64,000 nucleotides of DNA. Origin: a virus (Duplodnaviria; Heunggongvirae; Uroviricota; Caudoviricetes). Position numbers and translations under genes: made by a program. Numbering within the stretch: position 1 is the first letter of the stretch; each line of letters opens with the position of its first letter. The notes under the pieces are model-generated. The model was not told the origin of the DNA, made no database searches, and saw nothing but the letters and a program-made list of their open reading frames with translations. This document shows, in pieces, positions 166-55,735 of the stretch. Location: the IMG/VR virus record IMGVR_UViG_2861084961_000001; one strand, written 5' to 3'.

Positions 166-291
166 GTCCTTACCAAATCTATGTACCTATCATTAAACCT
201 TTACACCACAGCCGTAGGCATTTAGGCTATATCACATATAAGAAAACAAGTTGTTTCAGACGATAATTATATACGCAAAGGGAACTCTCCA

Positions 292-960
292 ATGACCAAG
301 ATCTTTGTGGTTGGCGGCACAAAGGGCGGGCCTGGCAAATCCACCGTTGCCCAGCAAATTGCCGTTTGCCTGAAAGTCAAAAAGAAGAAGAAGGTTTATA
401 TCACTGATATAGATATTCAGCGCACGACAACAAGCTGGTGTGAAGACCGTCGACAGAACGAAGACCTTGAGCTGATTCCTTTTGCATACGTTCAGGATGA
501 CATCATTAAGCACCTAAAATCGCTTCAGGGTAGAGCTGAGTTTGTAGTGGTAGATGCTGGTGGCTTTGACTCCGAAATTCAGCGACAAGCGATGCTGATG
601 GCCGACGTTATCATTATCCCGCTTCGCCCTAAGCGTCGTGATTTGAAATCTCTGCGTGACATCGATCCTATTATCGACAATGTTCGCAATATAAACGACA
701 AAGTGAAGGTTCGCGCGGTCATGAACCAATGCCCGGCTTTGCCATCACAAGTGTCTCGCATTCTAGCGGCTAAAGAGATTGTCGAGACGTTTGGCATCGA
801 GTCTGCGCCTGTCAATCTATATAACCGCAACGTCTACGATGATGCGGAAGAGTCTGGTCGTTCTATCTTTGAAATGACCGGTAGCGAACGCGACAAAAAG
901 GCGGAAGCCGAGTTTGAAGAATTTGTAGATTATCTGTTGAGTCTGGAGGAAGAAGAATAA
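292..960 (+). CDS. parA: ParA/Soj-family partition ATPase
   Basis: N-terminal deviant Walker A VGGTKGGPGKST; 222 aa typical small ParA; followed by small overlapping partner gene. Confidence 0.85.
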   Translation: MTKIFVVGGTKGGPGKSTVAQQIAVCLKVKKKKKVYITDIDIQRTTTSWCEDRRQNEDLELIPFAYVQDDIIKHLKSLQGRAEFVVVDAGGFDSEIQRQAMLMADVIIIPLRPKRRDLKSLRDIDPIIDNVRNINDKVKVRAVMNQCPALPSQVSRILAAKEIVETFGIESAPVNLYNRNVYDDAEESGRSIFEMTGSERDKKAEAEFEEFVDYLLSLEEEE

Positions 961-1319
961 TGTCCATGAAAATGGGTGACCTAGCAAAGCGCAAAGATAC
1001 TGATGAACCGGCTAAGAATACAACTCCTTTGCGCCAACCACTCAGACCACAGGGACGCCCGACTCGTGGCAAAGAGAAAATTAAAAGCCGCACAATGTCA
1101 TTGGAAGACGAATACTTCGAACTGCTGGAGATGATGAAGTTCATCCCTCGCTTCGAGAAGTTCACTCGTTCTGACGTGATTCGAGCAGCCATTTTCCATC
1201 TGGCAGAGAAGTCACCGCAGGAAATCGAGGACATCGTGAAATTGAATGAGGCGATCACCGCTGCCGATGTCACGATGCGTACCGATGAAATCAAACGAGA
1301 GTTGATGAAGAAAGGTTAA
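960..1319 (+). CDS. Small partition partner protein (ParB/ParG-like centromere-binding candidate)
   Basis: 119 aa ORF start-overlapping parA stop (ATGA-type coupling); basic N-terminus; position typical of type Ib par operon. Confidence 0.45.
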   Translation: MSMKMGDLAKRKDTDEPAKNTTPLRQPLRPQGRPTRGKEKIKSRTMSLEDEYFELLEMMKFIPRFEKFTRSDVIRAAIFHLAEKSPQEIEDIVKLNEAITAADVTMRTDEIKRELMKKG

Positions 1320-1323
1320 AAAT

Positions 1324-1356
1324 CATGCATTGGCGCGTACATTGCGCCAATGCATG
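1324..1356. terminator. Perfect palindrome catgcattggcgc-gtacat-tgcgccaatgcatg, bidirectional terminator candidate between convergent genes
   Basis: 12-13 bp perfect inverted repeat between convergent parB-like (+) and GIY-YIG (-) genes. Confidence 0.5.
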
Positions 1357-1371
1357 AGTACAATGTCAGTT

Positions 1372-3162: not shown

Positions 3163-3205
3163 CTAATACTAGAAAACAATTTGTTTAAAAAACAAAGGAA
3201 AGCAC

Positions 3206-4546: not shown

Positions 4547-4627
4547 AAAATAAGCGTGGAGAACACCTCCACGCTTGATTCATTGGTGAAACAACTTTTC
4601 TTTTGCCAAACCACAAAAGAAAAACAC

Positions 4628-5809
4628 ATGAGCCTTTATGTTATATCAACATTTAGGTTGGTCACAATATTGCCTGTTAAAAGTGGAATTATCGTGAGCG
4701 AGCTGAAAGAGCTAATTACCGAATTAGATTTTGAACAATGGTTGGATACTGAAGGTATCGTTTATCGACGTGGAGGCGTGAGTGCTCGCGGTCGTGAAGT
4801 GAATATCAAGGAGTGTCCGGTATGCGGCAGCTCCAACTGGAAGGTATATTTCAATCTGACCAGCGGCGTCGGTAAATGCTTCGCTGGTGATCATCCCGAA
4901 GAGATTCAGTTCAATAAGCTGGTCTTCCTCAAGCACTACAGCGGTAAATCACGACGACAGTTCGAGGAATATGTGCAGAACGCTCTTCTTTCCCAGGGGT
5001 GGGCACCAAAGAAAGAAGAGATAGTGCTTGCAAGCACAGTCGAGTTAGAGGGACCACTTGCACTCCCTCGTCATTACGAACTTCCTATAGATGGCCGTCT
5101 TCCAGACTATCTGGTTGAACGAAACATATCGCCTGAAATGGCAAAGTATTTTGACCTACGATACTGCGTCGAAGGCAAGCACGCTTATGTTGACCCGTAT
5201 ACAGATCAGGTTAAAGGACAGATATTCGATATGCGAATACTGATACCGGTTTACGATCTGGATGGGGTAATGAAGACATTTCAGGGGCGAGACATTACCG
5301 GTGCAGCAGAACGTCGCTACCTCTTTCCTATGCAGCTTCCAGCTTCAGGTAAGTTTCTCTACAACGGCCATAATGCGCTCGGCAAACAGACTGTAGTTGT
5401 CTGTGAGGGGGCGTTCGATGTTATGGGGGTTAAACGAGCTATTTTTGATGAAGAAACATTACGTGATTACGTGGAACCGATAGGAACGTTCGGGATGCAT
5501 CTATCTGGCAACACCACTCAAGATGCAGAAGATCAGTTGGGCGCGTTCCTGACGCTCAAGGCACGTGGATTACGTAATGTGATCATGATGTGGGATAGTG
5601 AAAAGCAAGCTATACGCAACACTATGGCCGCGGCCAGGCGACTGACCAGTATTGGTCTTAATGTCAAAGTAGCGTGTTTGGGCGAGGAAGGACTCGACCC
5701 CGGCGATGCAACGCCAGAACAAATTATCAAAGCCTATTATCGGGCAAAACCGTATACCAAACAGTTGGAGTTGCAAAGCAAGGTTTTAGGCATTAAGGCT
5801 CTATCGTAA
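4628..5809 (+). CDS. DNA primase (zinc-finger + TOPRIM)
   Basis: CPVCGSS...GKCFAGDH zinc-binding motif; TOPRIM-like VVVCEGAFDVM; start chosen at ATG 4628 preceded by conserved AAAGAAAAACACATG rather than the longer ORF start 4556. Confidence 0.75.
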   Translation: MSLYVISTFRLVTILPVKSGIIVSELKELITELDFEQWLDTEGIVYRRGGVSARGREVNIKECPVCGSSNWKVYFNLTSGVGKCFAGDHPEEIQFNKLVFLKHYSGKSRRQFEEYVQNALLSQGWAPKKEEIVLASTVELEGPLALPRHYELPIDGRLPDYLVERNISPEMAKYFDLRYCVEGKHAYVDPYTDQVKGQIFDMRILIPVYDLDGVMKTFQGRDITGAAERRYLFPMQLPASGKFLYNGHNALGKQTVVVCEGAFDVMGVKRAIFDEETLRDYVEPIGTFGMHLSGNTTQDAEDQLGAFLTLKARGLRNVIMMWDSEKQAIRNTMAAARRLTSIGLNVKVACLGEEGLDPGDATPEQIIKAYYRAKPYTKQLELQSKVLGIKALS

Positions 5810-8524: not shown

Positions 8525-8700
8525 TGCTCGGCTGGATGATTGCATTTTTAGCAGTTGGTTTTTTTATCGGTATTGTGGTGATGTCCAGTTGCATTAATGA
8601 TTACATTAAAAACGGTGTTATAGAAAGACGCGGTCGTATTTATCGCATTGTAGAAATAACCAACACCGTGAAGGAGATTAAGGATGATCGTATTAAGTAA
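8521..8700 (+). CDS. Small single-pass membrane protein (59 aa), paralog of 8896..9048
   Basis: Hydrophobic N-terminus MMLGWMIAFLAVGFFIGIVV then RGRIYRIVEIT motif shared with next-but-one ORF. Confidence 0.4.
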   Translation: MMLGWMIAFLAVGFFIGIVVMSSCINDYIKNGVIERRGRIYRIVEITNTVKEIKDDRIK

Positions 8701-8899
8701 ACGGGAGAAGGAAACACTTCATGAAATCAGTAAGTGGCCGGAGTTCCCTGAGTACTGGAAGCCTAAAACGCGGGCTAAGTTAGAGCGGTTAGGGTTGGTT
8801 GCAAACGTTTCTGAAACGAAGTGTTCGGCCAACTACCAGTTAACTGATAAAGGGAAAGTATTGCTACAGCAATTAGTAGAATCAGGAGCGTTAAAATGA
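8684..8899 (+). CDS. Hypothetical small protein (71 aa)
   Basis: ORF with overlapping start/stop in small-gene cluster. Confidence 0.35.
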   Translation: MIVLSKREKETLHEISKWPEFPEYWKPKTRAKLERLGLVANVSETKCSANYQLTDKGKVLLQQLVESGALK

Positions 8900-10111: not shown

Positions 10112-10186
10112 GATGGTGTAGCTCAGCGGTAGAGCAGTTGGCTGTTAACCAACTGGTCGGTGGTTCGAATCCACCCACCATCGCCA
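10112..10186 (+). tRNA. tRNA-Asn (anticodon GTT)
   Basis: Cloverleaf by eye: acceptor gatggtg/caccatc, anticodon loop ctGTTaa, T-loop ggttcgaat, CCA end. Confidence 0.8.
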
Positions 10187-10191
10187 ATTTA

Positions 10192-10278
10192 GGGGAGTTA
10201 GTCCGTAGAGGTAGCGGTGTAGACTGTAAATCTACTGTCATGGCGACTCGGGTGGTTCGACTCCATCACTCCCCACCA
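10192..10278 (+). tRNA. tRNA-Tyr (anticodon GTA), type II with long variable arm
   Basis: Acceptor ggggagt/actcccc, anticodon loop ctGTAaa, T-loop ggttcgact, CCA end. Confidence 0.75.
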
Positions 10279-10282
10279 AATT

Positions 10283-10358
10283 GCCGGTTTAGCTCAGTTG
10301 GTAGAGCGCCTGCCTTGTAAGCAGGATGTCAGCGGTTCGAGTCCGTTAACCGGCACCA
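10283..10358 (+). tRNA. tRNA-Thr (anticodon TGT)
   Basis: Acceptor gccggtt/aaccggc, D-arm agctcagttggtagagc, anticodon stem cctgc/gcagg with loop ctTGTaa, CCA end. Confidence 0.75.
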
Positions 10359-12381: not shown

Positions 12382-13483
12382 ATGAAAAATAGCTTTGACA
12401 GAGCACGCGCTGCGGAGAACACCTCAAAAGAGGCGATTGAGTATCTCGAAAGAGCATCTCAAATGCAGGCCGTTATGATCTCCCAGGTCAGCAATGACAT
12501 GAGATTCTCGGACGCATTCATGTTATTCACTCGCTTATCTCTGCTGATAACCAGACGTCGGCCAGAGATCGCTGTTCATTGTATTTTGATACATGTTTTG
12601 CCGCACATTGCTGATGTAAAAGTAAGTGACATTAATAGGTTCATGGTGAACCAACTGGTCAACCCCCTAATACTGGATGGCAAAATTGTTATGGGCCGCC
12701 GCGTTTTCTCTCTGATGAAGCAGTTCCTTAGCTGGTGCGCCTTCCAGGGGATGATAGACGTGTCACCGTTAAACGATATGTCACTAAACAAAGTTGCCGG
12801 TGGCGCAAAGCCCACACCTCGCGAGCGTAAGCTGACCGACGCAGAGGTATGGGTGTTCTGGAATATATGGGACTACTTCAATGTGTGCGCTGGTACAAAA
12901 TGGGCGGCCAGGCTGTGTCTTGTATCAGCAAGACGACCTGACGAAGTACTGCGGGCTAAAAAAGTGAGTTCAATCTTAAGCGTGGAGTTTGGAATCAAGG
13001 CAAGAGAAACAAGTCAGCACGTGAGCATTCGCTGCCTTTAAGCACATTAATGCGCACATGCATTGAAGAGTTGTTCGAATACGGTAAAAACAGCCAGTGG
13101 CTCGTGCCTTCGAATAAAAAATCGGGAAAGACCTTCCTATGTCTAAAGTGGCAATAGCCCAGGCATTACGTCGTATTCTGGAACGACCAGAACTGATGGA
13201 GCTTGAGCCATTTACACCCCGAGATTTGCGCCGTACTGCGCGTAGTTACTTCCCAGCATTAGGCATAAGCCAGGAGGTATCACGCAAAATCATGAACCAC
13301 AGTCTTGAGGGGATAGATCGGGTCTACGACCGGCACGATTATATGGACGAGATGCGAGACGCCTTAGAAAGTTTCTCGACGTACATCGCATCAATCGTAG
13401 AGCAACCGGATTTAGACGAAATTGACCACAAATTCAAGGGAGATCGTCTATCAACAGAGCTTATTCGTGTAAATTTTTCATAG
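12382..13483 (+). CDS. Tyrosine recombinase/integrase (P4-like), frame broken twice (around 13041 and 13139)
   Basis: C-terminal HSLPLSTLMRT..., FTPRDLRRTARSY..., IMNHSLEGIDRVYDRHDY resemble integrase catalytic region (R..H..R..Y); three frames all shifting -1. Confidence 0.6.
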
Positions 13484-13864
13484 AGACTTTATGGCCTCAA
13501 CAACCTTTTGTGATGCGCCTTTCTCTTTACCGAATCGCTCGTTATATGCAGCAAGAACCTGTTTTTCGTCCTCGTTAAGAGGAGCGGTGCCTTCTTTGTA
13601 TAAAAATGCTGCGAGTTCAGGTTGGCGTTCTTCCAGCACCATCATCATAAGACGACTTGGCTCAATACCCAGCGCCAGCGCCAGCGGACGAACCTTATCG
13701 ATAGGCAAAGGAATTTTGCCACTTTTAATTAAAGAAAGGTTGTTGGCATTTTTATAACCAATAAGTCTGGCTATTTGGGCCTGACTCATAGGTGAGGATT
13801 CAATCAGCCCTGCGATAAAAGCAGCATAGCGACTTTCTATAAATTCAATCTTGTTGTCAGACAT
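13478..13864 (-). CDS. XRE-family HTH transcriptional regulator (CI/Cro-like repressor candidate)
   Basis: Helix-turn-helix SQAQIARLIGYKNANNLSLIKSGK; divergent from downstream operon; palindromic ggtaagtgcttacc in its upstream region. Confidence 0.7.
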   Translation of the reverse strand: MSDNKIEFIESRYAAFIAGLIESSPMSQAQIARLIGYKNANNLSLIKSGKIPLPIDKVRPLALALGIEPSRLMMMVLEERQPELAAFLYKEGTAPLNEDEKQVLAAYNERFGKEKGASQKVVEAIKSL

Positions 13865-13894: not shown

Positions 13895-13908
13895 TGGTAA
13901 GTGCTTAC
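13895..13908. promoter_or_regulatory. Palindromic operator candidate GGTAAGTGCTTACC in the XRE regulator promoter region
   Basis: Perfect 14 bp palindrome; same half-site as dispersed intergenic motif. Confidence 0.5.
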
Positions 13909-14115
13909 CGATATTACATCAAAGGTTAGGGTTGTAAAGCTATTATCATTTTTTTCGGCAGGCACTTGTAAGACCGAGCAAAGGTCCATGCATGGAGAAA
14001 AACTAGCCCCAAATAGGTAAGAAAATTAACTTGCATCTGATATGGATGTATTCAGTATTGATACAAATTTTAGTAGTATTCCTTACCATAGTATAAGTTA
14101 GAATGGATTGATTGA

Positions 14116-14328: not shown

Positions 14329-14426
14329 CCCCTCTTCTCCCTGCGCGAATGGCTTAGTTCCCTGTTCGCGCAGTGCTACATTAAACACACTAGTAAATAA
14401 TTTGTTTTCATAACAAAGGATTAGCC

Positions 14427-16534
14427 ATGTCTAAAAAACGTTCCATCAAAGAGGTTCAGGACTTCCGTGACAGTGTAAAACGAGTAGTCGCTCTCCTTTC
14501 AGGTAAAAACATCCCTGTTGCAGAACGAGGGGACGACGCTTATGTACGCTATAACGATGATGGAGAGCCAATTCTCGTAAACATCCCATCAATCCCGGAT
14601 AACGCAACACCGGCATTGATGAATGCTGTGCGCGGATTTCTCGATCATGAGGTTGCTCACATTTTGTTTACCGATATTCGTGTGTCCAACAAAATGAGAG
14701 AAAAAGGACGCGTTCCTTCCTGGTCACTATGGAATGCCTTAGAAGACGTGTTCATCGAGCGAAAAATGGGGCAGGTCTTTAACGGAACGAGACGTAATCT
14801 GATGGCAACTCAGCGCCTTATAATCGAAAAAGTCTTTAAACCAAAGGCTTCAGAGGCTATTGATTATTGTGGCAAAGATCAGCGCGCGCTTTTTCTAAAC
14901 TTCTTTCTCTGTCCGGTTGTAAGAGCCTGGGATGGCCAAGCACCGTTCGTAGATTTCATGGATGAATACTGGCCTGTCATTGAGAAACCAATTTCATTAT
15001 TAAAAGAACATGGTATCGATGTGGCCGTGCGTAACATGTCTTGCACCGAGGATTGTGTAAAGGTGGCTGCGACCATAGCTAAGATCCTCAAAGACACTGA
15101 AAGTGAAAGCAAAGGTAAGGAGTCAGCTCCGGGAAAAACTTCCGATCCTTCAGATACTGACCAAACGGATGCCTCTGGAGAAAACAATGAAGACAACGAA
15201 GATCATGAGACACCCTCAGCGTTAGATAATCACAAATCTATCGAATCAGAATCACACAGTAAGCACAAACATGATAATAACGACAGTGATGATTCAGATA
15301 ATTCTGAATCATCAGAAACAATATTCGATGATACAGAAAATGATAAAGAGGTATCAGATTCTGATGCTTCTGATAACGCGGCGTCAGAATCATTAACCGC
15401 TGACCACGAAAAAAGAAAAACGACAGAAGACGGCTCTTCAGATATTCCAACTCCGTCAAAAATGAGTCTGGAAGAGGCTTTAGAGGAGCTGGATAGCATA
15501 GAAGATGAAGTCGGAGGCATGACAGAAGATGCTCTATCCGAAACGATTAAAAGCGAGTTAACAGAAAGCTCGAAAGCGAATACAGGCCATACAATCGCTC
15601 ATACGACTTCATCGGCTCGATTGATCAGGCAGAAGCCCATATCAAACGGCTTATTAAAACATTCTCCGATATTGATTTAGGAGGATATCCAATCAGCCGC
15701 TATCGCATCGTTCCTGAAGGCAACCAGCTCTTCGACAAATATATTGAAAAGCATCTTTCGTCAGGTGTTTCGTCGACGCTGGCAAAAGACCTGGAGCGAG
15801 CAATAGCAAGCAGAAACAGAGTTCAGTTTATACCGGGCCAGCGTCGGGGGCGCATTCATGGTTCTAGTATCTACAGATTAGCAATGAATGATGATCGCGT
15901 GTTTCGTAAAAAAGAAGAATCTAAAGCCGTTAACGCCTGTGTTCAACAAGTGATTGATTTATCAGGTTCAATGAGTGGTATAACGATACAATTGGCTCTT
16001 GCAAGTGCATATACCATCGCCGATGCCCTTGATCGAATAAATGTTCCCAACATTATCACCGGCTTCACTACATTTGGTAGTCATATGGCGGCAGGAGAAC
16101 TTAAGGCTGTCAAGTATGAGTTCTCTCGCTTTGAATCTTTAATGCTACCTATCATCAAAAATTGGAATGAAAAGGCAAATTCTCGCGAAGTTCGCTCACG
16201 TATGGGGTGCGTAGGCTACACATTCCCACTTCTTAATAACGTGGATGGTGAAAGCATAGCCAGCCTTGCATCGTTATTTTCTGGTCGCATGGAGGACAAG
16301 AAGATCATGCTTGTTCTAAGCGATGGCGCGCCGTGGGCTGTTGGGAGAGGTTTTGACGCTCATTTGCGTTCGGTTGCGAAGCAAATTGAAACGCAGACTG
16401 ACATTGATTTGATGGCAATTGGCATCATGACTGACGCACCGGAGAGATTTTACGCAAACCATGCCCTGGTAACGAGCGTTGATAGTCTTGGTTCATCTGT
16501 AGTTACTGAACTATCTCGTATCATTTTGAAGTGA
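14427..16534 (+). CDS. CobT-like vWA-domain protein with acidic Ser/Asp-rich linker; frame broken near 15550-15600
   Basis: C-terminal vWA MIDAS motif VIDLSGSMSG; long D/E/S-rich low-complexity region; conserved AACAAAGGATTAGCCATG start context; second frame is open upstream of 15884. Confidence 0.6.
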
Positions 16535-16629
16535 TTAGAACAGCCTTAATGATAAGTAATCACTTACGTTATTTGATGGTATATTTATATAAGAAGTTGA
16601 AAGCTCATTAGAAAACAAAGGAAAAACGC

Positions 16630-16902
16630 ATGACTACTACTGCACTGCAAAATGAAAAAAATCCTTCTGATTACCTTGTTTGCAAGTGGTGCGGAAAATC
16701 ATTTCACTATTTTAAGTCCCATGTAGCCAATGGTAATTGCGAGGGCATTCCTGAGTCAGTAAAAGATGCCGATCCTGACACCGTACTGAAAATGTACACA
16801 ACGCAGTTTCCAGATGAGCCAACGCTATCGAAAAAGGCACTTGATGCAATTCAAGCTAAACGTGCCGAGCAAAAAGCGAAATGGCCAAATCATCTGGCGT
16901 GA
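16630..16902 (+). CDS. Small zinc-ribbon-like protein (90 aa)
   Basis: CKWCGKSFHYFKSH...CEG cysteine/histidine cluster; conserved start context. Confidence 0.4.
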   Translation: MTTTALQNEKNPSDYLVCKWCGKSFHYFKSHVANGNCEGIPESVKDADPDTVLKMYTTQFPDEPTLSKKALDAIQAKRAEQKAKWPNHLA

Positions 16903-17864
16903 CCAATAGCCCAGGCTATACAGGCACAGTTGAGTACAAGACAGATCTGGTCGCAGCTCACGAACTGCTAAATGTAACGGTGAAAGAACTCGGAACAAAA
17001 CGTGGGACGCCGCTCATGGTTAGCGTCAACGTCAATACGCCGTTTCCAGAGTTCGTTCCAGAAGTGAAGAAGGGATACGTATATGGCGACTTCGAACTGA
17101 TCAAAGACATTTTCATGATGCTTGAACTTGGCATACCAGGCTATTTGTGGGGTCATGCAGGAACAGGCAAATCTTCATTGCCTACACAACTATGTGCTTT
17201 GCTCAATCGTCCGTTAATCCGTGCCCAACATACAGCATCAATGGAAGAGGCTCATGTTACGGGACAAATTCTGGCGCGTGATGGCTCTACGTATTTCGAG
17301 CCTGGCTTGCTTGCGCTCGCAATGAAGCATGGCTGGGTTTACCTCGCGGATGAATACGACTTTGCGTTTCCACAGATTCTTGGCGTGTATCAGCCAGTGC
17401 TGGAAGGTGAAGCGTTGGTCATCAAAGAGGCGACTCCAGAATGGCGTCGCATTACTCCGCATGAACGGTTTGCTTTCATTGGCACTGGCAACACGAACGG
17501 ATCTGGTGATGAAACCGGCTTGTACCAGGGTACAAACATCCAGAACGCCGCTAACTTTTCGCGTTTTGGCATCGTTTCGAATGTGAAATACATGAGCAAA
17601 GAGGCAGAGATCAACATGTTGATAAATGCCGGCATCGTGGATGAATACGCTGAAAAGATGGTTAAGTTTGCCGGTATCGTTCGCGATGGATACGAAGAAC
17701 ACCTGATCAGTCAGCCGATTGGCCCTCGTGAACTTTTGTTGTCGGCCAAGATTGGAATGATGCGAGGCGACTTTGTGACAGGTATTGAGCGTTCTTTCAT
17801 TAACAAACTCCCTTCAGCTTCTGCGCAAGCGGCACGTGAAGTTGTTCAAAAAATATTTGGTTAA
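16881..17864 (+). CDS. MoxR/CobS-like AAA+ ATPase
   Basis: Walker A GHAGTGKSS, Walker B WVYLADEYD; size and pairing with vWA protein. Confidence 0.75.
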   Translation: MAKSSGVTNSPGYTGTVEYKTDLVAAHELLNVTVKELGTKRGTPLMVSVNVNTPFPEFVPEVKKGYVYGDFELIKDIFMMLELGIPGYLWGHAGTGKSSLPTQLCALLNRPLIRAQHTASMEEAHVTGQILARDGSTYFEPGLLALAMKHGWVYLADEYDFAFPQILGVYQPVLEGEALVIKEATPEWRRITPHERFAFIGTGNTNGSGDETGLYQGTNIQNAANFSRFGIVSNVKYMSKEAEINMLINAGIVDEYAEKMVKFAGIVRDGYEEHLISQPIGPRELLLSAKIGMMRGDFVTGIERSFINKLPSASAQAAREVVQKIFG

Positions 17865-18043
17865 TCGTGCGTAAAGGATGTTTCGGCTCTCTTATCGCTG
17901 CTTCTGAAACTGGCAAGGCTTGTCTGGTGTGTCCAGACAAGCCCGATTGTCACCAATCAGCAAAAGAAGTTGCGATTTCGATGTATGGGAAGTTCGTAGG
18001 CTTCCCCAATGACAAAATCAAAAAACCAGAAAGGTAAAAACAC

Positions 18044-30137: not shown

Positions 30138-30192
30138 TCGCCTATTCATAACTAACAAAATAAGTAAACACTAACCACAAAAGGAAAAACAC

Positions 30193-33866: not shown

Positions 33867-34120
33867 CCCTCCAGATCGCATATTGGCGTAGATAGAATCT
33901 ACGCCCCCTCAAAATAGCTCTCATAGCGTTCTACAGTGATTCTGTCTTATTTTTAGTCATACAGACAAGCAAAGTTGCGCCACGATAAATAGGTATATAC
34001 TTACTTATAAATTTTGTATATTAAGACGCTCGTTTCATTCCTAACATACCGTTATGCATAGTTGTTTACCTTCTCATTGCTCTTAAAATTTGTATCAAAA
34101 TAACCACAAAGGAAAAACAC

Positions 34121-35436
34121 ATGACTTTGCCATACGGCGTCATTTCTGACTGCCACTACCACAAATGGGATGCGTTCTCCACGACGAACGCTGAGGGGCT
34201 TAACTCCAGACTTGAAATACAGTTGGAAGCAACGAAAGAAGCAGCCATCGCCATGAAGAAGGCCGGTTGTAAGTACATGTTGGTTGCCGGTGATACATTT
34301 CACGTCCGAGGAACTGTGTCCCCTTCTGTTTTGCATTACGTAACTGAAACGTACAAGTGGATTATCAACGAGCTTGATCTGACAGTAGTAATGCTGGCCG
34401 GTAATCACGATCTTGAAACCAACGATTCAGTATATAGCGCCAACGCAGCAGCATCGCTGAGTTCTATCGGCGTGGTAATCGTATGTGGCAAGCGCCCACA
34501 CTCAATAAAAATTGGTGATGTCACTGTCCACCTGATTAGCTGGCGTAACAATCATGCGGAGCTTATCAGCGATCTGAAAGCATTACGTAAGAGCGTAGAA
34601 GGTGATAATCATGACGTTGTTATCCATACATCCATTAACAAAGCCATTCCAACAATGCCTGACGTCGGTATCGATGCGCAGGAGTTAAAGGATATCGGCT
34701 TTCGTCTCGTGCTTAGTGGGCATTACCACAACCACAAAGAGGTCATTCCTGGAGTTATCAGTGTCGGTGCACTGACCATCAAAATTGGGGAGATGTTGGA
34801 TCTCTGGCTGGTTACATGATCGTAAACCCGGACGGCAGTTTCAGTCACTACGAAACCAGTGCGCCTAAATTCATTAACCTGGAAGATTATGTTGCCGATG
34901 ATCAAATTCGCGGCAACTACGTGCGTTTCCGCGCCGTAATGAGAACGATGAAGAAGGCATTAAGTACCAGAACATCCTCAAAACAATGGGTGCAAAGGTG
35001 TTGTGTGCAACTTCATCCGTAAGTCATCAATGATGGAAGGGACAGCAAGCACAACGGAAACCAGCAAAATCGATAGCCTGGGAGAGTCGGTATCTGCTTA
35101 TTGCAAGATTGTCCACGATACTGACGGCGGATTTGATCTGAGCAAGTTGGATATTTTGTGTCAGGAAATCCTCACCGAAGCGGAGAGTTCGGAGGCTGTG
35201 TGAGGCAAAGTCGTTATGGGAGCTTTCGAGACTTTGCCATCACGATGAAAAGACTTGAACGAGGCCAGACGGTGATGTTTCACAAGCCCTACCCGCCACA
35301 AGGAAATCCCGTAGCGTTTTATCTTGGAAGGTTAACCAGAAAAGGCGTATTGAGGCGCAGATCCTTCCCGGCGCATACGGAGTTCAGATTGAAAGAAGGT
35401 CAAAAGCTAACACACGGTATCAAAGGTGTTATATGA
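34121..35436 (+). CDS. SbcD/Mre11-like nuclease (calcineurin-like phosphoesterase), C-terminal part frame-broken
   Basis: Phosphoesterase motifs DCHYH, AGDTFH, GNHD, GHYH; conserved start context; C-terminal fragments 34816, 35003, 35158. Confidence 0.7.
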
Positions 35437-38124: not shown

Positions 38125-38654
38125 ATGAGTAACTTTGGGCTTGCTGTGGGCACTTTAGACCTTGAAACGGACGAACTTGAGATTCACGGCCTTACTCTTG
38201 TTGAGACTAAAGCGGGGAGTAACAAAAAGACAGTTCGTGTGAACAGCGACGATCTGCGCCGTGCCAGTGAAATATGGCGTGTTGCGAAGCCAATCATTGA
38301 TAAGGCAAATATGGTTTTTTGTGAGCTACCGGTTGGGAGCCAAACTCTCGTTCGCAGACGTCTTACGGAATTTGTATCGGTGTACTTGCGTGTGTGGATA
38401 AGCCATTGATCCAGGTTACTCCAAACGAAATTAAGCATTTTGTCGGCAATAAACTTACTACATCGAAAGAAGAGATTATCCAGTGGGCTACGAAAAAACA
38501 CCCTAAAGCACCGTGGCTGCGTCGTAAGCAATCTGGACAGGATGTTCTCGTGAACAAAAACGAACATTTGGCTGATGCGGTGGCTGCCATCCATACCGGT
38601 ATGCAAACGGATCAGTTCCGCCAGGTGCGCGATGTTCTTAAGTCTCTCATTTGA
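38125..38654 (+). CDS. RuvC-like Holliday junction resolvase candidate (frame break near 38400)
   Basis: C-terminal EHLADAVAAIHTG resembles RuvC D..DA.A.A..H motif; combined length ~176 aa. Confidence 0.45.
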
Positions 38655-38688
38655 TTTCATTGATAGGTAAGTGCTTATCTATTAACAT

Positions 38689-38720
38689 GGGCCACTATAT
38701 TTAGTGGCCCTCTTTATTTG
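38689..38720 (+). terminator. Terminator hairpin gggccactatatttagtggccc + T-rich
   Basis: 7 bp GC stem, followed by tctttattt. Confidence 0.6.
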
Positions 38721-41043: not shown

Positions 41044-41147
41044 CATATGGTGGGGGGTATCCCACCTTCTCTTTGATTTGTAAGCCTTGTTTAAACAAAT
41101 AAGATAACAACTTGTTTAAACACATCAAAAAGCAAAAGGAAAAACAC

Positions 41148-42290
41148 ATGTCATATTCAACGTTCCGTTTGGGTGCTAATGATGCAACCAAAGAGCCTAT
41201 GTTCCTCGGACAATCTGTCAACGTGGCACGTTACGATCAGCAAAAATACCGTGATTTTGAAAAGTTGATTGAACGTCAATTGTCTTTCTTCTGGCGGCCG
41301 GAAGAAGTTGATATTTCGAGCGATCGTATCGACTTCAACACGAAGCTGCGGGACCACGAACGTCACATTTTTCTGAGCAATCTCCGTTATCAAACGTTAC
41401 TCGATTCAGTTCAGGGACGTAGCCCAAATGCAACGTTGCTGCCGCTTATCTCTATTCCTGAACTGGAAACGTGGGTTGAAACATGGTCTTTCTCTGAGAC
41501 TATCCATAGCCGCAGCTACACCCACATTATTCGTGGCATGGTGGACGATCCGAGCATTGTTTTTGACGGTATTGTTACGGATGAAGAAATCATCAACCGA
41601 GCGATCAGTATCTCTGCTGAATATGACAGGCTTTATGGGATGACCTGCGAGCGCCAGTCGTTAGGTGAGAAGGAGTTTGAACGTCTGTACGTAAATGAAT
41701 ATGGCTGGGAGCCATACCCTTTGCACCGTCAGCTTTTCCGCACGTTGGTGTCCATTAATGCGCTTGAGGCGATCCGTTTCTATGTAAGTTTTGCATGTAC
41801 GTTTGCCTTTGGCGAACGGAAGTTGCTTGAGGGTAACACCAAAATTATGCGCTTTATTGCCCGTGATGAAGCTCTGCATTGCGAAGGAACTGAACGCATG
41901 ATCCGCTTCATGCGTACCGGTCGCGAAGGTTTATTGTGGAAAGAGATTGCTGCTGATGAAGAAAATGTCATTTACGACACCATGAAATCAGTCGCCGAAC
42001 AAGAAATGAACTGGGCAGACTATCTCTTCAAAGACGGTTCGATGATTGGTTTAAACGCGGATATTCTGAAGACCTATGTAAAATACCGCACCAATCTGGC
42101 TATGAATCGTCTTGGCCTGAAGGCTTTATTTCCAGAGGTTACCACCGATCCGCTGATCTGGATGAACAAGTGGTTGTTAACCGACACACTGCAAATTGCA
42201 CCACAAGAGGCAGAGCAAAGCACATATCTGGTAGGTCAGATCGATTCTACCGTGGATAAGGCTTCTCTAAGCCAGTTTGCTGACCTGTAA
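41148..42290 (+). CDS. nrdB: Ribonucleotide reductase small subunit NrdB
   Basis: [22 protein letters not shown]-terminus like E. coli NrdB; di-iron motifs in EAIRFYVSF and RDEALHCEG; start at ATG 41148 after conserved AAAGGAAAAACACATG. Confidence 0.9.
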
Positions 42291-48057: not shown

Positions 48058-48227
48058 CGTTCCCCTACTGAAAATAAAGCCCATAGAGAGCTTTATAGTG
48101 CTGGGTAAGCTAACCCATACCCAGCACCACAAAAACGCGCCAGAGAGCTTCTTGTTCGCATTTCTGGCGCGTTTTATTTGATTGCCATACATAAAATCAA
48201 ATGCAAAAATAGGTAATCACTTACCTA

Positions 48228-50421: not shown

Positions 50422-50569
50422 TAAGTAAGTGTTTACCTATCATTTTAAATCATGTATCTTATCGGCGTCAGGATGACAATGTGTCGGTAAGACACAGTTC
50501 CAGGATGGAACGAGAAAGGCGGCTGGCAATCGCCAGCCGCAACTCTTTCTGACACTGGATGGAGTCCAC

Positions 50570-51262: not shown

Positions 51263-51355
51263 CGGCTGTTAGTGCATATGCATTGACCATCTCTGCGTAA
51301 GCAATTTATGTAATTAGAAAACAACTTGTTTTGACAAATAATAAAAGGAAAACAC

Positions 51356-51780
51356 ATGTTAGGTTTCTTCAAAAAGAAAACTCGTAAAGCTGTTATCGAA
51401 GTCAAAAAATGGAGAACCGTGATGCGGTTGAGGCCACCGTGTGGGGCGCGTACATGATCTCCTATGCCGACGGCACATGTGACGCAAAAGAAATTGCCAT
51501 TCTTGAGAAGACAATTGCAGCTCTGCCTGCGTTTTCTCCGTTTGCTGGTGAAATTGCCCAAATGAGCGCCAATATCCGTGCTCGTTACGAAGCGTCCCCT
51601 CGTTCTGCTAATGCACAGGCTATTCGTGAGCTGTCTGATATTGCGGGTACTCCAGAGGCGGTCGATGTTCTGTGTCTGTGCCTTGATATTGCCGATCAGG
51701 ACGGCATTGGTGAACAAGAAGAGCAGGCACTGAAAAAGATCGCCCAGGCGCTTCAGTTGTCACTGGATGCTTATCTCTAA
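51356..51780 (+). CDS. TerB-like domain protein, frame broken at A-run 51404-51409
   Basis: ATVWGAYMISYADGTCDAKEIAILEK...DQDGIGEQEEQALKKIAQAL resembles TerB; ATG 51356 follows conserved AAAAGGAAAACACATG. Confidence 0.5.
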
Positions 51781-52076
51781 TGCTTGAGAGATTCCGGCTT
51801 GTGATCGTCATTGCTCTTCTGGTGATGGCGGTGTTGGTGGATTTACGGGAAAGATGATGTCTGTCATTTCTGATGGCGTCCTCATTGGTTTGGCGATCTA
51901 CTTCGCTTATCCGTTAGTTCGTAAAGCAAAGTGTTAATGACAAGGGCCAAATGGCCCTTGTGTTTCGTTGACCGAAATAGAGAGTTTGCACCTTTACGTT
52001 TAGCTTGCTCCCCTTTTATGCCACATCACAATAAAGCCAATAAGAAAACAACTTGTTTAAGCATTAGGAAAAACAC

Positions 52077-52643
52077 ATGTGCAAGAAATGCAAAGCGATA
52101 GCTGATGAACAAAACGCCTTATTCGAAGAAATGGATGCTAATGAACTGGTCAAAATGTTAGCCATTCTTCGAGGAATAGAAGACGTTTCCATATTTGAGA
52201 GAGTGGTTACAGCACTTAATTTTGAGTCCACCTTTGAAGAGCCAACTCAGGTTGTAGCTTTAGCACATCATTTCGGTGTTCATTATCTTGCTGAAAAAGA
52301 GAGAGCTGATAAGTTGCAAGCGACTTTGGATATGGTGAGCGAGACTCAAGGAACTCATGACGGTAACAAAAGTGAGACGATTATTGCCAGCAAAGATCGT
52401 GAAATTGCCGGGCTTAAATCCTCTCTAACGATGTTGATGTCTGCAATTAACCTTATGTCTTCTAAAGCAGGTTATAAAATGCCATCACTAAACAGCGACG
52501 ATCCGATGGCCGTTCGCCAGCTTTTAGGTGCAATGGCCGACCAGCTCGACGACACAAAGAGTCGCCTTGAAGACATGATGCGGGAGCTCACGCATCGCCA
52601 TGACTTGAATAAGCAGCCACACAAAACGCAATACGCACTCTAA
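52077..52643 (+). CDS. Hypothetical coiled-coil protein (188 aa)
   Basis: Conserved start context. Confidence 0.45.
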   Translation: MCKKCKAIADEQNALFEEMDANELVKMLAILRGIEDVSIFERVVTALNFESTFEEPTQVVALAHHFGVHYLAEKERADKLQATLDMVSETQGTHDGNKSETIIASKDREIAGLKSSLTMLMSAINLMSSKAGYKMPSLNSDDPMAVRQLLGAMADQLDDTKSRLEDMMRELTHRHDLNKQPHKTQYAL

Positions 52644-52784
52644 TACTGCACCAGTCGACAGGGGGCGAAAGCCCCCATTTTTACGCCTTAAATCTGCTGT
52701 AACGCCTATGAATGCAGCTTTTATGCCTTTTCAAGTTTGCGATAATTACACCAATAAGAAAACAAATTATTTAATGGTGTAATT

Positions 52785-54470
52785 ATGAATACAGCCCTTT
52801 CCATCATCGACGATGCCAGCTCAAACACGGCTATCGACTATCGTCAGGAAATGAATGTCATCCACGAAATCGTGGACGAGTGCGAGAAAGAGATCGCCTT
52901 CATGTATCAGGTACACGACTTCGTTTATGGCGACGAACGCCACAACATGATTAATCGCCTGCTGAGACTAAACCATCGACCAGATGAAGATCGCTCGCGT
53001 TTAAATCGAGGTTGGTTGGATAAAGTTGATCTGGAATGGGTGAAACAGAATATTTGGGCCGAGTACTGGAGGAAGGTCACGGACATGACTAACGTTTTGC
53101 TGATCATGCCAGCTTCCCGTCGAGATGAGTGGCGCGAGCAGTTTATAGAGGGCAAACAGGAAGTCATCAAAACTGACAGAACCGGCTACCAGATGAAGGT
53201 TAAAGAGTTCGTTGGTGTACCGGAGTTCAAAGCAGAAACGGTCATACCCACGATGCTTAATTTGCTGAATGACAGGCACAAATATCTCTCTGAGCGCGTG
53301 TATGGCTTGTTTAAGGCGCTGAGTCCTGCGCACAAGACAAATAAGACAAACGGTTTCAGCGAGCGTCTGATAATCGCTGACTGCATTTCTGATTTCTGGC
53401 GGGACAGCGTTAGCGTGAACTATCGCAAAGAGGACTACATCGACGATCTGCGTGTCTTGCTTCATTTCTTCGCGCACAAAGAATTTATTACCATCAACCG
53501 CACTGCTGAGGTGCTATCAGCTGCGTATCGGGCAAACGACTGCCAGACCGGTGACTGGATGAACGTCGATGGAAATCTGATGCGCGTGAAGATGTTCAAG
53601 AACGGCAACGTTCACTTTGAAATACATCCTGACGTGGCCTGGAAGTTGAATGAGGTGCTGGCTTACAGTATGCCTGCTGCAATCCCCGCGCCATGCCGAA
53701 CTGCGCCAAAAACACGGGCACCAAAGCAGTTCGGTTTAATCCAGAAGACGATCTCCGTGCCGGTTCGCACTGCGCTTCGTGACGGGCGATTGAGCAAAGA
53801 CAAAGGCGTATGGTACTTCTCTGATTCAGCTCTCCAGAAGTCGCAGGTGGAAGAGCTTGAGCGCACACTGAGCTTCATTGGCGGCGTGCAGGAGAAAAAG
53901 CACTGGCAGTTCCCGTATGACATCGGCCATACGCTAAATACGATTGTGGCTACCGGTTTAATACCGGATACAAAATCACACCAGTTCTACCCTACCCCAC
54001 GCTTGATTGCTGAGTACGTTGCCAGAGCCACTGAATTGAAGCCTGGTGAGAAGCTGCTTGAGCCTCACGCCGGACGTGGGGATCTTCTGGCCTATATTAA
54101 CGCCGATCTGGAAGATGTTACCTGCATAGAAATCGCACCTCTCTTCGCTGATATCCTGCGTGGAAAAGGGTATACGAACACGATTTGCTGCGACTTCATA
54201 AAGTGGTCTGAGGACAACGCAGGTTATCAGTTCGACAAAATCGTTATGAACCCGCCGTACTCGCTTGGTCGTCATAGGGAGCACACGATGGCTGCGCTGG
54301 GGCATCTGAAAGTCGGCGGGCGTCTTGTAGCAGTATTGCCGGGCACTGCGCCAATACTGGACTGGATGACGATGGATAATTACGTTTATGCCAGAGGGAA
54401 GTCGTTTACCAACGAGTTTGAAGACACAGGGATCACAGTCAGCGTATACGTTTTCAAACGCGTTAAATGA
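52785..54470 (+). CDS. Large protein with C-terminal N6-adenine DNA methyltransferase domain and ~400 aa N-terminal domain of unknown function
   Basis: FYPTP, LLEPHAGRGDLLAYI (SAM-binding) and VMNPPYS (catalytic) in C-terminal third; 561 aa intact ORF. Confidence 0.7.
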   Translation: MNTALSIIDDASSNTAIDYRQEMNVIHEIVDECEKEIAFMYQVHDFVYGDERHNMINRLLRLNHRPDEDRSRLNRGWLDKVDLEWVKQNIWAEYWRKVTDMTNVLLIMPASRRDEWREQFIEGKQEVIKTDRTGYQMKVKEFVGVPEFKAETVIPTMLNLLNDRHKYLSERVYGLFKALSPAHKTNKTNGFSERLIIADCISDFWRDSVSVNYRKEDYIDDLRVLLHFFAHKEFITINRTAEVLSAAYRANDCQTGDWMNVDGNLMRVKMFKNGNVHFEIHPDVAWKLNEVLAYSMPAAIPAPCRTAPKTRAPKQFGLIQKTISVPVRTALRDGRLSKDKGVWYFSDSALQKSQVEELERTLSFIGGVQEKKHWQFPYDIGHTLNTIVATGLIPDTKSHQFYPTPRLIAEYVARATELKPGEKLLEPHAGRGDLLAYINADLEDVTCIEIAPLFADILRGKGYTNTICCDFIKWSEDNAGYQFDKIVMNPPYSLGRHREHTMAALGHLKVGGRLVAVLPGTAPILDWMTMDNYVYARGKSFTNEFEDTGITVSVYVFKRVK

Positions 54471-54531
54471 TAGGTAAATACTTACTTAATTTATGTAAGA
54501 ATGTAGTAACTAAACGATAAGAGAAAAACAC

Positions 54532-55236
54532 ATGAGCAACCTCCAGTTAGAGCATTTTAACGTCACAGGCCATTCCGATTTTCCTTTCAAGTTTACATTG
54601 AAAGGTTATGCGGAGGATGCGGTAGGCCAGATCATTATTGATAAAGGTATCGTTAAGTTTGAGGGGAATTTTGATGAATCCGCGAAAACATTCATAGACT
54701 TCGTTGCCAAACGTTGGAGCGAGCAATGGAAAGACCTGGAAAAGCGCGCCAATGAGTTTGATCGGTTCATGGATGCAATGGATACAGCAAAAGAGGCTCT
54801 GGCTGCCGGGACTCCGTTAGATCTGGAGTCACTTTTCAACGGCACAATGGCCTCTGCGATGTTCGCCACCATGTTCGCGGGTGAGTTCGTCCGCAGCGGT
54901 GCCAAAAACTACCTTGAGCTGGATTACAACGTCCCTGAAATTGGCGATTTCGTCGTTACCATCCAACGAAAAGAAGGTAAGACGCCAGGTGAACGCGTCG
55001 CAGAACTTGAGGCCGTTGTGGAGCAGCGTAACGGCGAGTGCGTTCGTTTGATCAACGAACGTAATGCTCTTCGTGAAGAAAAAATATGCACAGGTAGCAA
55101 TACACGTAATGCAGCGGATATCTACTTCCAGTTAGTTGAGGAATGCCAGATTCCACCAGGTGGCTCTCTTGTCGATTACGTCAGACATTTAATGGCGGAA
55201 GTTAACTCCAGCCATAAAGATGGTGAGGTGCGCTGA
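54532..55236 (+). CDS. Hypothetical protein (234 aa)
   Basis: Conserved start context AGAAAAACACATG. Confidence 0.45.
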   Translation: MSNLQLEHFNVTGHSDFPFKFTLKGYAEDAVGQIIIDKGIVKFEGNFDESAKTFIDFVAKRWSEQWKDLEKRANEFDRFMDAMDTAKEALAAGTPLDLESLFNGTMASAMFATMFAGEFVRSGAKNYLELDYNVPEIGDFVVTIQRKEGKTPGERVAELEAVVEQRNGECVRLINERNALREEKICTGSNTRNAADIYFQLVEECQIPPGGSLVDYVRHLMAEVNSSHKDGEVR

Positions 55237-55616
55237 TGTTTGGCATTGATGCACAGCGTATAGCAGCTTTTGCAAAAAGCCCTCTTGATAATCCCTTGTC
55301 TCGTAGTGAGCAAATGGAGCTGGCAAGGCTTTTTCTTCACATTCAAAAACAGGCAGACGTTTTCAATAACATGCCTGATCAACCTATTCTGGATGGTCAC
55401 ATCCAGATGGTCATTAACAGTCATGAGAAAGGCTGGGCTGCAATCGTCCCCTGCACAATTACATACAAGTTGGCGAAAGAGGTTCAAGAGTTTCGAAAAG
55501 CCAGTGTCGAATCGGAGTCTACCAAAGCCGCAATAAACACTCTTATTCGCATGGGGTTCACATGGGACGGTGGAGTTTACTGGCAAGCACCTCAACCCAT
55601 TTTATCCGGCAATTAG
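55236..55616 (+). CDS. Hypothetical protein (126 aa)
   Basis: Start-overlaps upstream stop. Confidence 0.4.
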   Translation: MFGIDAQRIAAFAKSPLDNPLSRSEQMELARLFLHIQKQADVFNNMPDQPILDGHIQMVINSHEKGWAAIVPCTITYKLAKEVQEFRKASVESESTKAAINTLIRMGFTWDGGVYWQAPQPILSGN

Positions 55617-55735
55617 GCGCTACAAATCCTTCTGCATGAATAAATAAAGGCCATAACTTATGGCCTTAAATAAATTGTTTTCTACCTTTTCTTATTTGTG
55701 AAAATAACCACAACTAGAAAACAACGGAGTTAAGA

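Follow-up and report, generated by a model that had tools for sequence, protein, structure and literature searches.

Introduction

In the plasmid prophage P1, one short site recurs at many promoters over about 100 kb, and many operons are shut in lysogeny by the C1 protein that binds it. In this study, we analysed a 64,000-nucleotide stretch of viral DNA (Caudoviricetes; IMG/VR record IMGVR_UViG_2861084961_000001; the whole stretch is called the window below), which on the basis of megablast and the annotation of its relative Cyrano is the non-structural half of an SSU5-type phage-plasmid of Escherichia coli. An 18-bp near-dyad recurs at promoters of this element and its relatives, and we judge, with a probability of roughly 55%, that it is the DNA operator of a phage-encoded global regulator and the operator half of a promoter-operator cassette. 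The P1 sites differ from it in being asymmetric, 17 bp long and bound by a known protein, C1, as a monomer, whereas the near-dyad lies mainly 3' of the -10 box and has no sequence similarity to them.

Several other described systems share features with this locus. KorB with OB (RK2), omega with its heptads (pSM19035) and SopB (N15) are partition-operon proteins with several to a dozen dispersed sites near promoters, by which segregation and transcription are coupled. The SSU5-type element resembles them in having one site before parA and about 20 at other promoters, and the half-site arrays of one Klebsiella relative (AR_0096) look like omega operators. However, unlike KorB and SopB, which are large helix-turn-helix proteins of the ParB type, the present candidate is small and ParG-like, and the sites are at lytic phage genes. 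Operators of the lac O1 type offer a parallel in position, as there also a dyad centred at about +11 to +14 covers the initially transcribed region of a sigma-70 promoter and an auxiliary copy lies on the other side; in the phage-plasmids, in contrast, the auxiliary copy reaches into the -35 region at a distance of only 51 bp, extended -10 promoters are used and the start points are predicted ones.

Two systems that act on mRNA are also relevant. As in T4, where the operators of RegA are found, many early and DNA-metabolism genes of the SSU5-type element share a recognizable sequence at the translation start, but RegA sites overlap the AUG and are poorly conserved, whereas the palindrome described here lies 5' of the Shine-Dalgarno sequence at a variable distance. 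The founding FljA protein of Salmonella phase variation is reported to bind fliC mRNA and block its translation (Yamamoto and Kutsukake 2006, as cited in PMC2652032). Relatives of the window encode a full-length FljA-family protein, and the fliC start region has resemblance to theirs; on the other hand, the dyad of fliC is ATCAA-N7-TTGAT and its leader has no significant match to the near-dyad. Control of this kind is already known, but as far as our searches show, the site, the cassette and the regulon are undescribed for the SSU5-type family in the literature searched, where no description of SSU5/pHCM2-type regulatory circuitry was found.

Phage-plasmids of the SSU5/pHCM2 type abound in E. 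coli, Klebsiella, Salmonella and Enterobacter. The product of the gene after parA alone matches 796 plasmids in PLSDB. A scan of viral contigs returned at least 120 stretches, many of which, to judge by length only, belong to contigs of roughly 100 kb. Resistance genes can ride on these elements (PMC9600943). For the window, megablast gave identities of 97% with Escherichia phage CMS-2020a, with Cyrano (the plasmid pLF82 of E. coli LF82) and with PhiR41_1, of about 80% with Salmonella phage SSU5 and of about 78% with Klebsiella elements, pJN2-26 among them. Five lineages were compared: Cyrano, SSU5, pJN2-26, the more distant Klebsiella pneumoniae plasmid AR_0096 unnamed3, and Moellerella wisconsensis pW18-2-b (NZ_CP093251). 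Gene identities were taken from the Cyrano annotation; open reading frame (ORF) calls in the window are unreliable owing to many frameshifts.

Results

A near-dyad repeated in the window and in four lineages

The strict palindrome AAACAA-N1-3-TTGTTT has 4 matches in the window against 0.00 expected. Written in full, the element is the 18-bp near-dyad AGAAAACAANTTGTTTAA, composed as AGAAAACAA-N-TTGTTTAA, for which 11 matches with up to 3 mismatches were found (0.41 expected; 0 of 100 shuffles reached 11), while the left arm AGAAAACAA by itself has 12 matches against 1.4 expected. The copies that the sequence-only reading had placed upstream of start codons are all real, with coordinates off by 0-5 nt (241, 3171, 26798, 41102, 51316, 52043 and 52757, and a half-site at 55716). 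It had missed a full inverted copy at 55666-55683, a weak inverted copy at 14393-14410 and a weak copy at 61256; a match at 51153 on the minus strand, inside an ORF, is probably due to chance. The sites and their surroundings in the window are as follows.

241-258, plus strand: dyad AGAAAACAAGTTGTTTCA, 33 nt before parA (ATG at 292); promoter region identical in Cyrano, SSU5 and pJN2-26
3171-3188, plus strand: dyad AGAAAACAATTTGTTTAA, a perfect match, before the replicative helicase gene (ATG at 3206); the -10-like TAATACT adjoins it at 3164-3170
14393-14410, minus strand: weak inverted dyad with 3 mismatches, before the cobT-like gene (ATG at 14427)
26784-26815, plus strand: -10-like TATTAT (26784-26789), 8 nt, then dyad AGAAAACAATTTGTTAAA (26798-26815), before the ORF at 26830; a terminator hairpin lies just 5'
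41087-41119, plus strand: extra palindrome TTGTTTAAACAA (41087-41098) and dyad AGATAACAACTTGTTTAA (41102-41119) between nrdA and nrdB, before nrdB (ATG at 41148)
51316-51333, plus strand: dyad AGAAAACAACTTGTTTTG, before the TciA-like gene (ATG at 51356)
52027-52060, plus strand: -10-like CACAAT (52027-52032), 10 nt, then dyad AGAAAACAACTTGTTTAA (52043-52060), before the gene at 52077
52738-52774, plus strand: extended -10 TGCGATAAT (52738-52746), 10 nt, then dyad AGAAAACAAATTATTTAA (52757-52774); canonical cassette before the DUF4942 methylase-like gene (ATG at 52785)
55647-55724: two-site promoter of the gene starting at 55736, with a hairpin (55647-55667), a full inverted dyad (55666-55683, minus strand), an extended -10 TGTGAAAAT (55697-55705) and a forward half-site AGAAAACAA (55716-55724); site centres 51 bp apart
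61256-61273, plus strand: weak dyad AGAAAAAAATTTGTTAAA with 2 mismatches, about 140 nt before the UmuD-like gene (ATG at 61414); membership uncertain

At the same threshold of 3 mismatches, there are 21 dyads in Cyrano, 21 in SSU5, 20 in pJN2-26 and 21 in AR_0096 unnamed3. Across these genomes they precede parA, the helicase gene, the cobT-like gene, nrdB, the TciA-like gene, the DUF4942 methylase-like gene, small early genes (Cyrano 93-98.5 kb) and terS. The motif is found at orthologous promoters of SSU5 and of two Klebsiella lineages, so the notion that it might be absent from related elements falls away. For instance, the nrdB dyad has orthologues at SSU5 70216 and pJN2-26 7462, and the cobT-like promoter, where the window has the weak inverted site, carries a perfect forward copy in SSU5 (42726; pJN2-26 91037).

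The pattern of conservation is that of a site with two conserved arms. A comparison of 61 distinct sites gave at least 90% conservation in the arms, which have two-fold symmetry, and an unconstrained centre. In an alignment of the helicase promoter from four genomes, the dyad and the Shine-Dalgarno sequence stand out as conserved blocks between diverging flanks, and the cassette of the DUF4942 promoter is kept in SSU5 and pJN2-26. Both dyads are invariant among genomes with an overall identity of only 77-80%, while neighbouring bases vary and the central base is free.

The fifth lineage, Moellerella pW18-2-b, is a syntenic SSU5-like plasmid from the Morganellaceae with essentially no dyad regulon and no stereotyped start region of the kind described below. 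The identity of the motif in elements of E. coli, Salmonella and Klebsiella, together with its absence from the element of a different host family, is what one would expect if the dyad recruited a chromosomal regulator of the Enterobacteriaceae and the promoters followed host physiology. Nevertheless, the dyad matches none of the E. coli regulator consensus sequences with which it was compared (PhoP, IHF, KdgR, DeoR, PurR, Fur and NrdR), and dispersed identical operators are typical of regulators encoded by the element itself; a host protein as the binder appears very improbable to us.

As a separate observation, the Moellerella plasmid keeps the extended -10 promoter before its DUF4942 gene, where the dyad is replaced by a different sequence, AAGAAATTGATGTTAATTAC, which recurs once more as AAGAAATTGAAAACAATTAC; this may be a diverged operator.

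Position of the dyad in a stereotyped promoter

When all sites are aligned on the dyad, the same order of elements emerges: a conserved GCCTTTTC-type stretch, with which in several cases the preceding gene's terminator ends; a sigma-70-type extended -10 box (TGnGATAAT, TGGTATTAT or TGnGAAAAT) with little or no -35 box; about 10 A/C-rich bases (AACACCAACA); the dyad; the Shine-Dalgarno sequence; and ATG. In about 60% of the forward sites, the dyad is preceded at 8-11 nt, mostly 10 nt, by the end of a -10-like hexamer; this has A2 and T6 and is in most cases GATAAT or TATTAT with TGn in front. Exceptions are the helicase promoter, where the -10 box abuts the dyad, and parA and nrdB, where the assignment of the -10 box is unclear. 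The Shine-Dalgarno sequence is always 3' of the dyad, and the distance from the dyad to the start codon ranges from about 8 to 40 nt. Because the Shine-Dalgarno sequence can follow after as little as 2 nt, the dyad lies between the -10 box and the ribosome site and is not an upstream element of a later start; a role as the -10 or -35 box of a downstream start is impossible where the gap is that small. With start points predicted by the usual 7-nt rule, the dyad would span roughly +5 to +22 of short leaders.

At five promoters per genome, a further copy lies upstream in inverted orientation and outside the mRNA, with its centre (about -37) at exactly 51 bp from that of the first. Apart from the pair in the window, examples are found in Cyrano (93112/93162), SSU5 (88317/88367) and pJN2-26 (24757/24807 and 28537/28587), and the paired sites flank the -10 box in all four genomes. 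One inverted-copy promoter of the AR_0096 plasmid has an array of four GTTTTCT half-sites.

In a rival explanation, the conserved block is a promoter-plus-leader cassette, made up of the -10 box, a discriminator, an A/C-rich initial transcript and the ribosome site, that has spread by duplication and is kept for its efficiency, with no trans-acting factor and with an incidental dyad. Whole cassettes (GCCTTTTC, -10 box, AACACCAACA) are indeed alike between non-orthologous genes, the left arm also stands alone at canonical positions (window 55716, and four times as ATAAGAAAACAA in Moellerella), and leaders made only of A and C cannot fold, which favours translation. However, the right arm TTGTTT is kept at orthologous sites amid changing neighbours and next to a free centre, which is the signature of a dyad site. 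Moreover, the inverted extra copies at a fixed 51 bp and the tandem copies before terS do not fit an incidental dyad, nor does its presence at promoters with other -10 spacings and flanks (parA, helicase, nrdB). We therefore regard duplication in the absence of any factor as improbable.

Two further structures were noted at dyad promoters. The inverted upstream dyad (window 55647-55683 and its equivalents) adjoins a hairpin with a T-rich tail that has a terminator score on the minus strand only, and this hairpin shows compensatory changes between genomes (GGCCAC/GTGGCC versus GGCTAT/ATAGCC); a short minus-strand RNA that carries the motif is conceivable. The leader of the late operon lies outside the window at the following positions.

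Cyrano 54-134: late-operon leader
SSU5 53-133: late-operon leader
pJN2-26 38625-38700: late-operon leader

It contains one or two tandem dyads and then a GC-rich hairpin with a T-run about 20 nt before the ATG of terS. This promoter-leader-terminator layout suggests that the late genes may need antitermination or read-through.

Symmetry, RNA folding and expression in the lysogen

As the dyad would lie within the transcribed leader, its symmetry could in principle reflect an RNA structure, and the sequence-only reading had expected a hairpin just 5' of the Shine-Dalgarno sequence. This expectation was not borne out. The predicted stem has an energy of -0.7 kcal/mol, and none of the minimum-energy folds computed for five real leaders contains it; z-scores were around 0. 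Across the 61 sites, none of the 5 pairs has changed on both sides, 26 cells lose pairing and the sole C-G pair is lost in 9 sites. A search of the window against Rfam at gathering thresholds gave three tRNAs only and no leader family. As the fold is weak and neither double changes nor an Rfam match was found, the symmetry is not that of an RNA structure, and a hairpin or structured leader was rejected as its explanation.

A translational operator of the RegA or gp32 type had also been proposed for the palindrome. The dyad ends 8-40 nt before the ATG and lies 5' of the Shine-Dalgarno sequence, whereas its distance from the -10 box is nearly fixed, which argues against such a role. T4-like UvsY, gp32-like, UvsW and Pnkp genes are present in this phage, and no RegA homologue was found by tblastn in the window and three genomes, which is a weak test. 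Taken together, the symmetry with a free centre, the upstream copies outside the mRNA, the nearly fixed distance to the -10 box and the variable distance to the ATG point to a duplex-DNA site for a symmetric protein. Hence, of the roles first offered for the palindrome, a DNA operator and an early promoter element are favoured in combination, with the dyad as the downstream part of a stereotyped promoter cassette, while a translational operator is the less likely option.

The published per-gene RNA-seq data for Cyrano in the LF82 lysogen (PMC9928086, supplement 2) are consistent with repression of the dyad genes in lysogeny. Against a median of 9.8, these genes are at background levels (helicase 21, nrdB 13, CYRAN_58 5.7, small early genes 5-25), with the exception of the parA operon, which is moderately expressed (50, 89 and 55). 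These data do not separate transcriptional from post-transcriptional control. Regulators that are expressed in the lysogen include the XRE-type protein CYRAN_45 (96), the post-parA protein (89), CYRAN_117 (114) and the UmuD-like protein (148). The FljA-like CYRAN_114 has a value of 18 in overnight LB and log2 values of 7-8 in other conditions.

The stereotyped start region and the FljA-like protein

A second conserved element, the 13-mer AAAGGAAAAACAC, lies directly before the ATG of a set of genes. With up to 2 mismatches it has 10 matches in the window against 0.1 expected, all on the plus strand and at real gene starts; the form AAAGGAAAAACACATG, with up to 3 mismatches, has 10 against 0.94. 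The members are listed below.

4615-4630, plus strand: 1 mismatch; primase gene (ATG at 4628)
16617-16632, plus strand: 1 mismatch; cobS-like gene (ATG at 16630)
18031-18046, plus strand: 2 mismatches; DNA polymerase III alpha gene (ATG at 18044)
22220-22235, plus strand: 2 mismatches; gp32-like single-strand-binding protein gene (ATG at 22233)
30180-30195, plus strand: perfect; small ORF at 30193
34108-34123, plus strand: perfect; SbcD-like nuclease gene (ATG at 34121)
41135-41150, plus strand: perfect; nrdB (ATG at 41148), 3' of the dyad at 41102
51343-51358, plus strand: 2 mismatches; TciA-like gene (ATG at 51356), 3' of the dyad at 51316
52064-52079, plus strand: 2 mismatches; gene at 52077, 3' of the dyad at 52043
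54519-54534, plus strand: 2 mismatches; Ead/Ea22-like gene (ATG at 54532)

Thirteen gene starts had originally been credited with a near-identical ribosome-binding region. Ten of them are strong members, those at 3206 and 25701 are weak with 4 mismatches each, and the one at 14427, with 7 mismatches, does not belong. In Cyrano the distribution of mismatches is bimodal, with 13 of 123 genes at 4 or fewer and a peak at 8-10 for the rest, and all members are in the early and DNA-metabolism region, none in the structural region. Conservation reaches further upstream (AATAACCACAAAGGAAAAACAC-ATG). Several members follow promoters that have a second palindrome, GGTAAGTGCTTACC, between the -35 and -10 boxes. 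Since the start region is made almost only of A and C, apart from the GG of the Shine-Dalgarno sequence, it cannot fold. We read it as a separate feature, probably a shared short leader with a strong Shine-Dalgarno sequence and an optimized ribosome site for early DNA-metabolism genes. Start region and dyad regulon co-occur phylogenetically, as both are present in AR_0096 and both are missing in Moellerella, and the start region overlaps the Shine-Dalgarno sequence and start codon in the manner of a T4 RegA-type operator.

A different account of the data applies mainly to the start region: the motif, the start region or both might be read in the mRNA leader by a RegA-like RNA-binding repressor that blocks translation and shortens the life of the mRNA. 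The obvious candidate for such a protein is encoded outside the window.

Cyrano 100780-101301, minus strand: FljA-like CYRAN_114, with homologues in SSU5, pJN2-26 and AR_0096

CYRAN_114 belongs to the FljA family over its full length (PF03614, E 1e-80), and all motif-bearing relatives encode such a protein. In the large protein database searched, most members of the family are on SSU5-like contigs of 105-112 kb, and Moellerella lacks the FljA-like protein, the dyad regulon and the start region alike. In addition, the motif is oriented along the direction of transcription, and there is a likeness between its left arm AGAAAACA and the start region AGGAAAAACA. We recovered the sequence of the S. 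Typhimurium fliC leader from published primer tables. It has CAAGTTGT and AAGGAAAA in common with the phage leaders, and its start region UAAGGAAAAGAUC-AUG is 4 mismatches away from the stereotyped 13-mer, a similarity (4 of 13) that is suggestive only. The dyad itself fits an mRNA target less well. Reverse-complement symmetry would be meaningless to a protein that binds single-stranded RNA, and, as described above, the hairpin is negligible and lacks covariation, the inverted upstream copies are outside the mRNA and the distance to the start codon ranges over 8-40 nt. Furthermore, the fliC leader fails the dyad matrix, with a best score of -8.6 bits (p 0.35) where real sites reach 12.9-28.7, and was consequently rejected as a homologous operator of the dyad. 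In AR_0096 the motif is the same although the FljA-like protein retains only 34% identity, and the phylogenetic profile rests on a single negative lineage. All considered, an operator read in RNA is unlikely.

The structure model of CYRAN_114 has a tandem Sm/Hfq-like fold. Chromosomal FljA is only about 40% identical to the phage-plasmid proteins of its family; this, together with the presence of most family members on SSU5-like contigs, suggests that FljA may derive from phage-plasmids.

Proteins that might bind the dyad

For a symmetric protein encoded by the element, the following genes of the window come into consideration.

292-960, plus strand: parA, a match to the ParA family
960-1319, plus strand: 119-amino-acid gene after parA (CYRAN_29), putatively ParG-like with a ribbon-helix-helix fold; lead candidate
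8684-8899, plus strand: 71-amino-acid gene, annotated in Cyrano as a putative transcriptional regulator; alternative candidate

The post-parA protein has the layout of ParG-type proteins, with a disordered basic N-terminus followed by strand-helix-helix. In five lineages, whose versions of the protein are as little as 28% identical overall, the putative DNA-reading strand IKSRTMSxEDE does not vary. The protein has a weak match to a ribbon-helix-helix regulator family, no Pfam match and no sequence match in the PDB, and its structure model is of low confidence (pLDDT 65). These features of the protein, the fact that the dyad is the sole repeat upstream of parA, and half-sites in Moellerella make it our lead candidate rather than a finding.

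A more specific version of the operator model follows from this candidate, namely that the dyad is the site of a type Ib centromere-binding protein encoded after parA. The copy at parA would then autoregulate the partition operon, and the approximately 20 dispersed copies would restrain lytic promoters and at the same time form a dispersed centromere. No other repeat or dyad is found in the segment 5' of parA, which is highly conserved; the post-parA gene is expressed in the lysogen (89, against a median of 9.8), and the half-site arrays of AR_0096 resemble operator arrays of ribbon-helix-helix proteins. Even without the genome-wide motif, Moellerella keeps the post-parA protein and inverted AAGAAAAC half-sites that flank its parA promoter. 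However, the retention of the protein where almost all dispersed sites have been lost also speaks against a global role, and AAGAAA in that plasmid may be the mere transcript start of a promoter family. The ribbon-helix-helix fold is only putative, given the low pLDDT and the missing Pfam and PDB matches, and parA has just one dyad in front of it, in contrast to the arrays that usually make up type Ib centromeres. A partition-linked global silencer thus seems doubtful, though better placed than control at the RNA level. A search for non-phage plasmids with the same partition pair returned none; all matches were SSU5-like elements or fragments of them.

The distribution of other putative regulators was also compared. 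The 71-amino-acid gene is present in every motif-bearing lineage, missing from the motif-less Moellerella plasmid and not expressed in the lysogen. Moellerella is without homologues of CYRAN_114, CYRAN_37 and CYRAN_62 and keeps CYRAN_29, 113, 117 and 123. AR_0096, in which the dyad and the start region are present, keeps CYRAN_114, 37, 62, 29, 113 and 123, only 117 being missing. CYRAN_117, which is ribbon-helix-helix-like and highly expressed in the lysogen, is an unlikely binder, as AR_0096 has 21 sites and no homologue of it. CYRAN_45 (window 13478-13864), the XRE-type protein encoded next to the integrase, was rejected because its own control region has the other palindrome, GGTAAGTGCTTACC, and because SSU5 keeps the motif without the gene. 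Autoregulation by the small early proteins CYRAN_101-111 was likewise set aside; by eye these are small and largely acidic, with no evident DNA-binding signature, although no domain search was made. Two known systems were also dismissed: an N4-type hairpin promoter, for which no virion RNA polymerase is annotated, and RepA iterons, as there are no dyads near repA.

Further features of the window

The second palindrome, GGTAAGTGCTTACC or TAGGTAA-N4-TTACCTA, has 14 matches in the window against 3.3 expected. It is found upstream of other genes than the dyad, in some cases between -35-like and -10-like boxes, at the following positions.

161-174: second palindrome
13896-13909: second palindrome, in the control region of the XRE-type repressor gene (13478-13864), where GGTAAG/CTTACC-like half-repeats recur
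16555-16568: second palindrome
30163-30176: second palindrome
38666-38679: second palindrome
48212-48225: second palindrome
50424-50437: second palindrome
54473-54486: second palindrome

On the strength of its position at 13896, it is probably the operator of the XRE-type repressor, and probably also the element that the sequence-only reading counted as the first of its two.

According to the Cyrano annotation, the window encodes parA, a replicative helicase, primase, ligase, a tRNA cluster, an integrase, the XRE-type repressor, cobT/cobS-like proteins, DNA polymerase III alpha, UvsY, a gp32-like single-strand-binding protein, RecA, repA, SbcCD, nrdAB, thyX and many small genes, nearly all on the plus strand. 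The genes cobT (2109 nt), cobS (1236 nt) and dnaE (3507 nt) are single ORFs in Cyrano and are split into several ORFs at window 14427-21556. These broken ORFs indicate many frameshifts, which come either from sequencing or assembly indels or from decay of this copy. The three-tRNA cluster (10112-10355) shares about 93% identity with its counterpart in the phage-plasmids P7 and D6, to which there is no other relationship. At 40-64 kb, in comparison with Cyrano, relatives cover only 83-89% of this part of the window, and parts match lambdoid or Stx phages (Ead/Ea22-like genes), which indicates mosaic exchange in this putative accessory region.

Discussion

We propose that the near-dyad is the operator of a phage-encoded DNA-binding protein with two-fold symmetry, either a dimer or a dimer of dimers. 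When bound, this protein would block the binding or the escape of RNA polymerase, and some 20 promoters could be switched together, including those for replication, nucleotide metabolism, partition, the small early genes and the late-operon leader. At promoters that have a second inverted copy 51 bp upstream, cooperative binding might clamp the promoter, whereas at a few others, e.g., that of the helicase, the dyad would cover the start site itself. In this scheme we infer the transcription start points, the binding of a protein, the repression and the identity of the binder alike.

Several observations weigh against this proposal. Checks against Pfam, protein families and structure models gave no candidate binder with a confident DNA-binding domain assignment. 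A generic -35/-10 scan does not call the dyad promoters, which it misses because they are extended -10 promoters without a -35 box. Low mRNA levels in the lysogen would also be expected from translational repression accompanied by mRNA decay. The dyad is also imperfect, as the left arm AGAAAACAA extends over 9 nt and is more tightly conserved than the shorter right arm (TTGTTT followed by a less conserved AA), and its orientation tracks the direction of transcription at nearly all leader sites. Because of this orientation, and because solitary left arms stand at canonical positions (window 55716; Moellerella), part of the left-arm conservation may belong to the promoter, the initial transcript or the leader rather than to a protein site.

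As to which protein reads these elements, our tentative suggestion, which we hold with less than even confidence, is that it is either the partition protein encoded after parA or the FljA-family Sm protein. In the first case, a partition protein would double as a master silencer through about 20 centromere-operator sites, and segregation and the lysis-lysogeny state would be read from the same protein-DNA contacts. In the second, a tandem-Sm protein of the FljA family would be a global post-transcriptional repressor that acts on stereotyped leaders, and Salmonella FljA would be a domesticated phage-plasmid regulator. Either binder, if confirmed, would link the control of these phages with another process, namely plasmid segregation or the origin of flagellar phase variation. 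In any event, an 18-bp site at about 20 promoters, together with the second palindrome family, provides a handle on how about 100 kb of lytic genes stay silent in the plasmid state, and it also bears on the induction of SSU5-type elements by quinolones.

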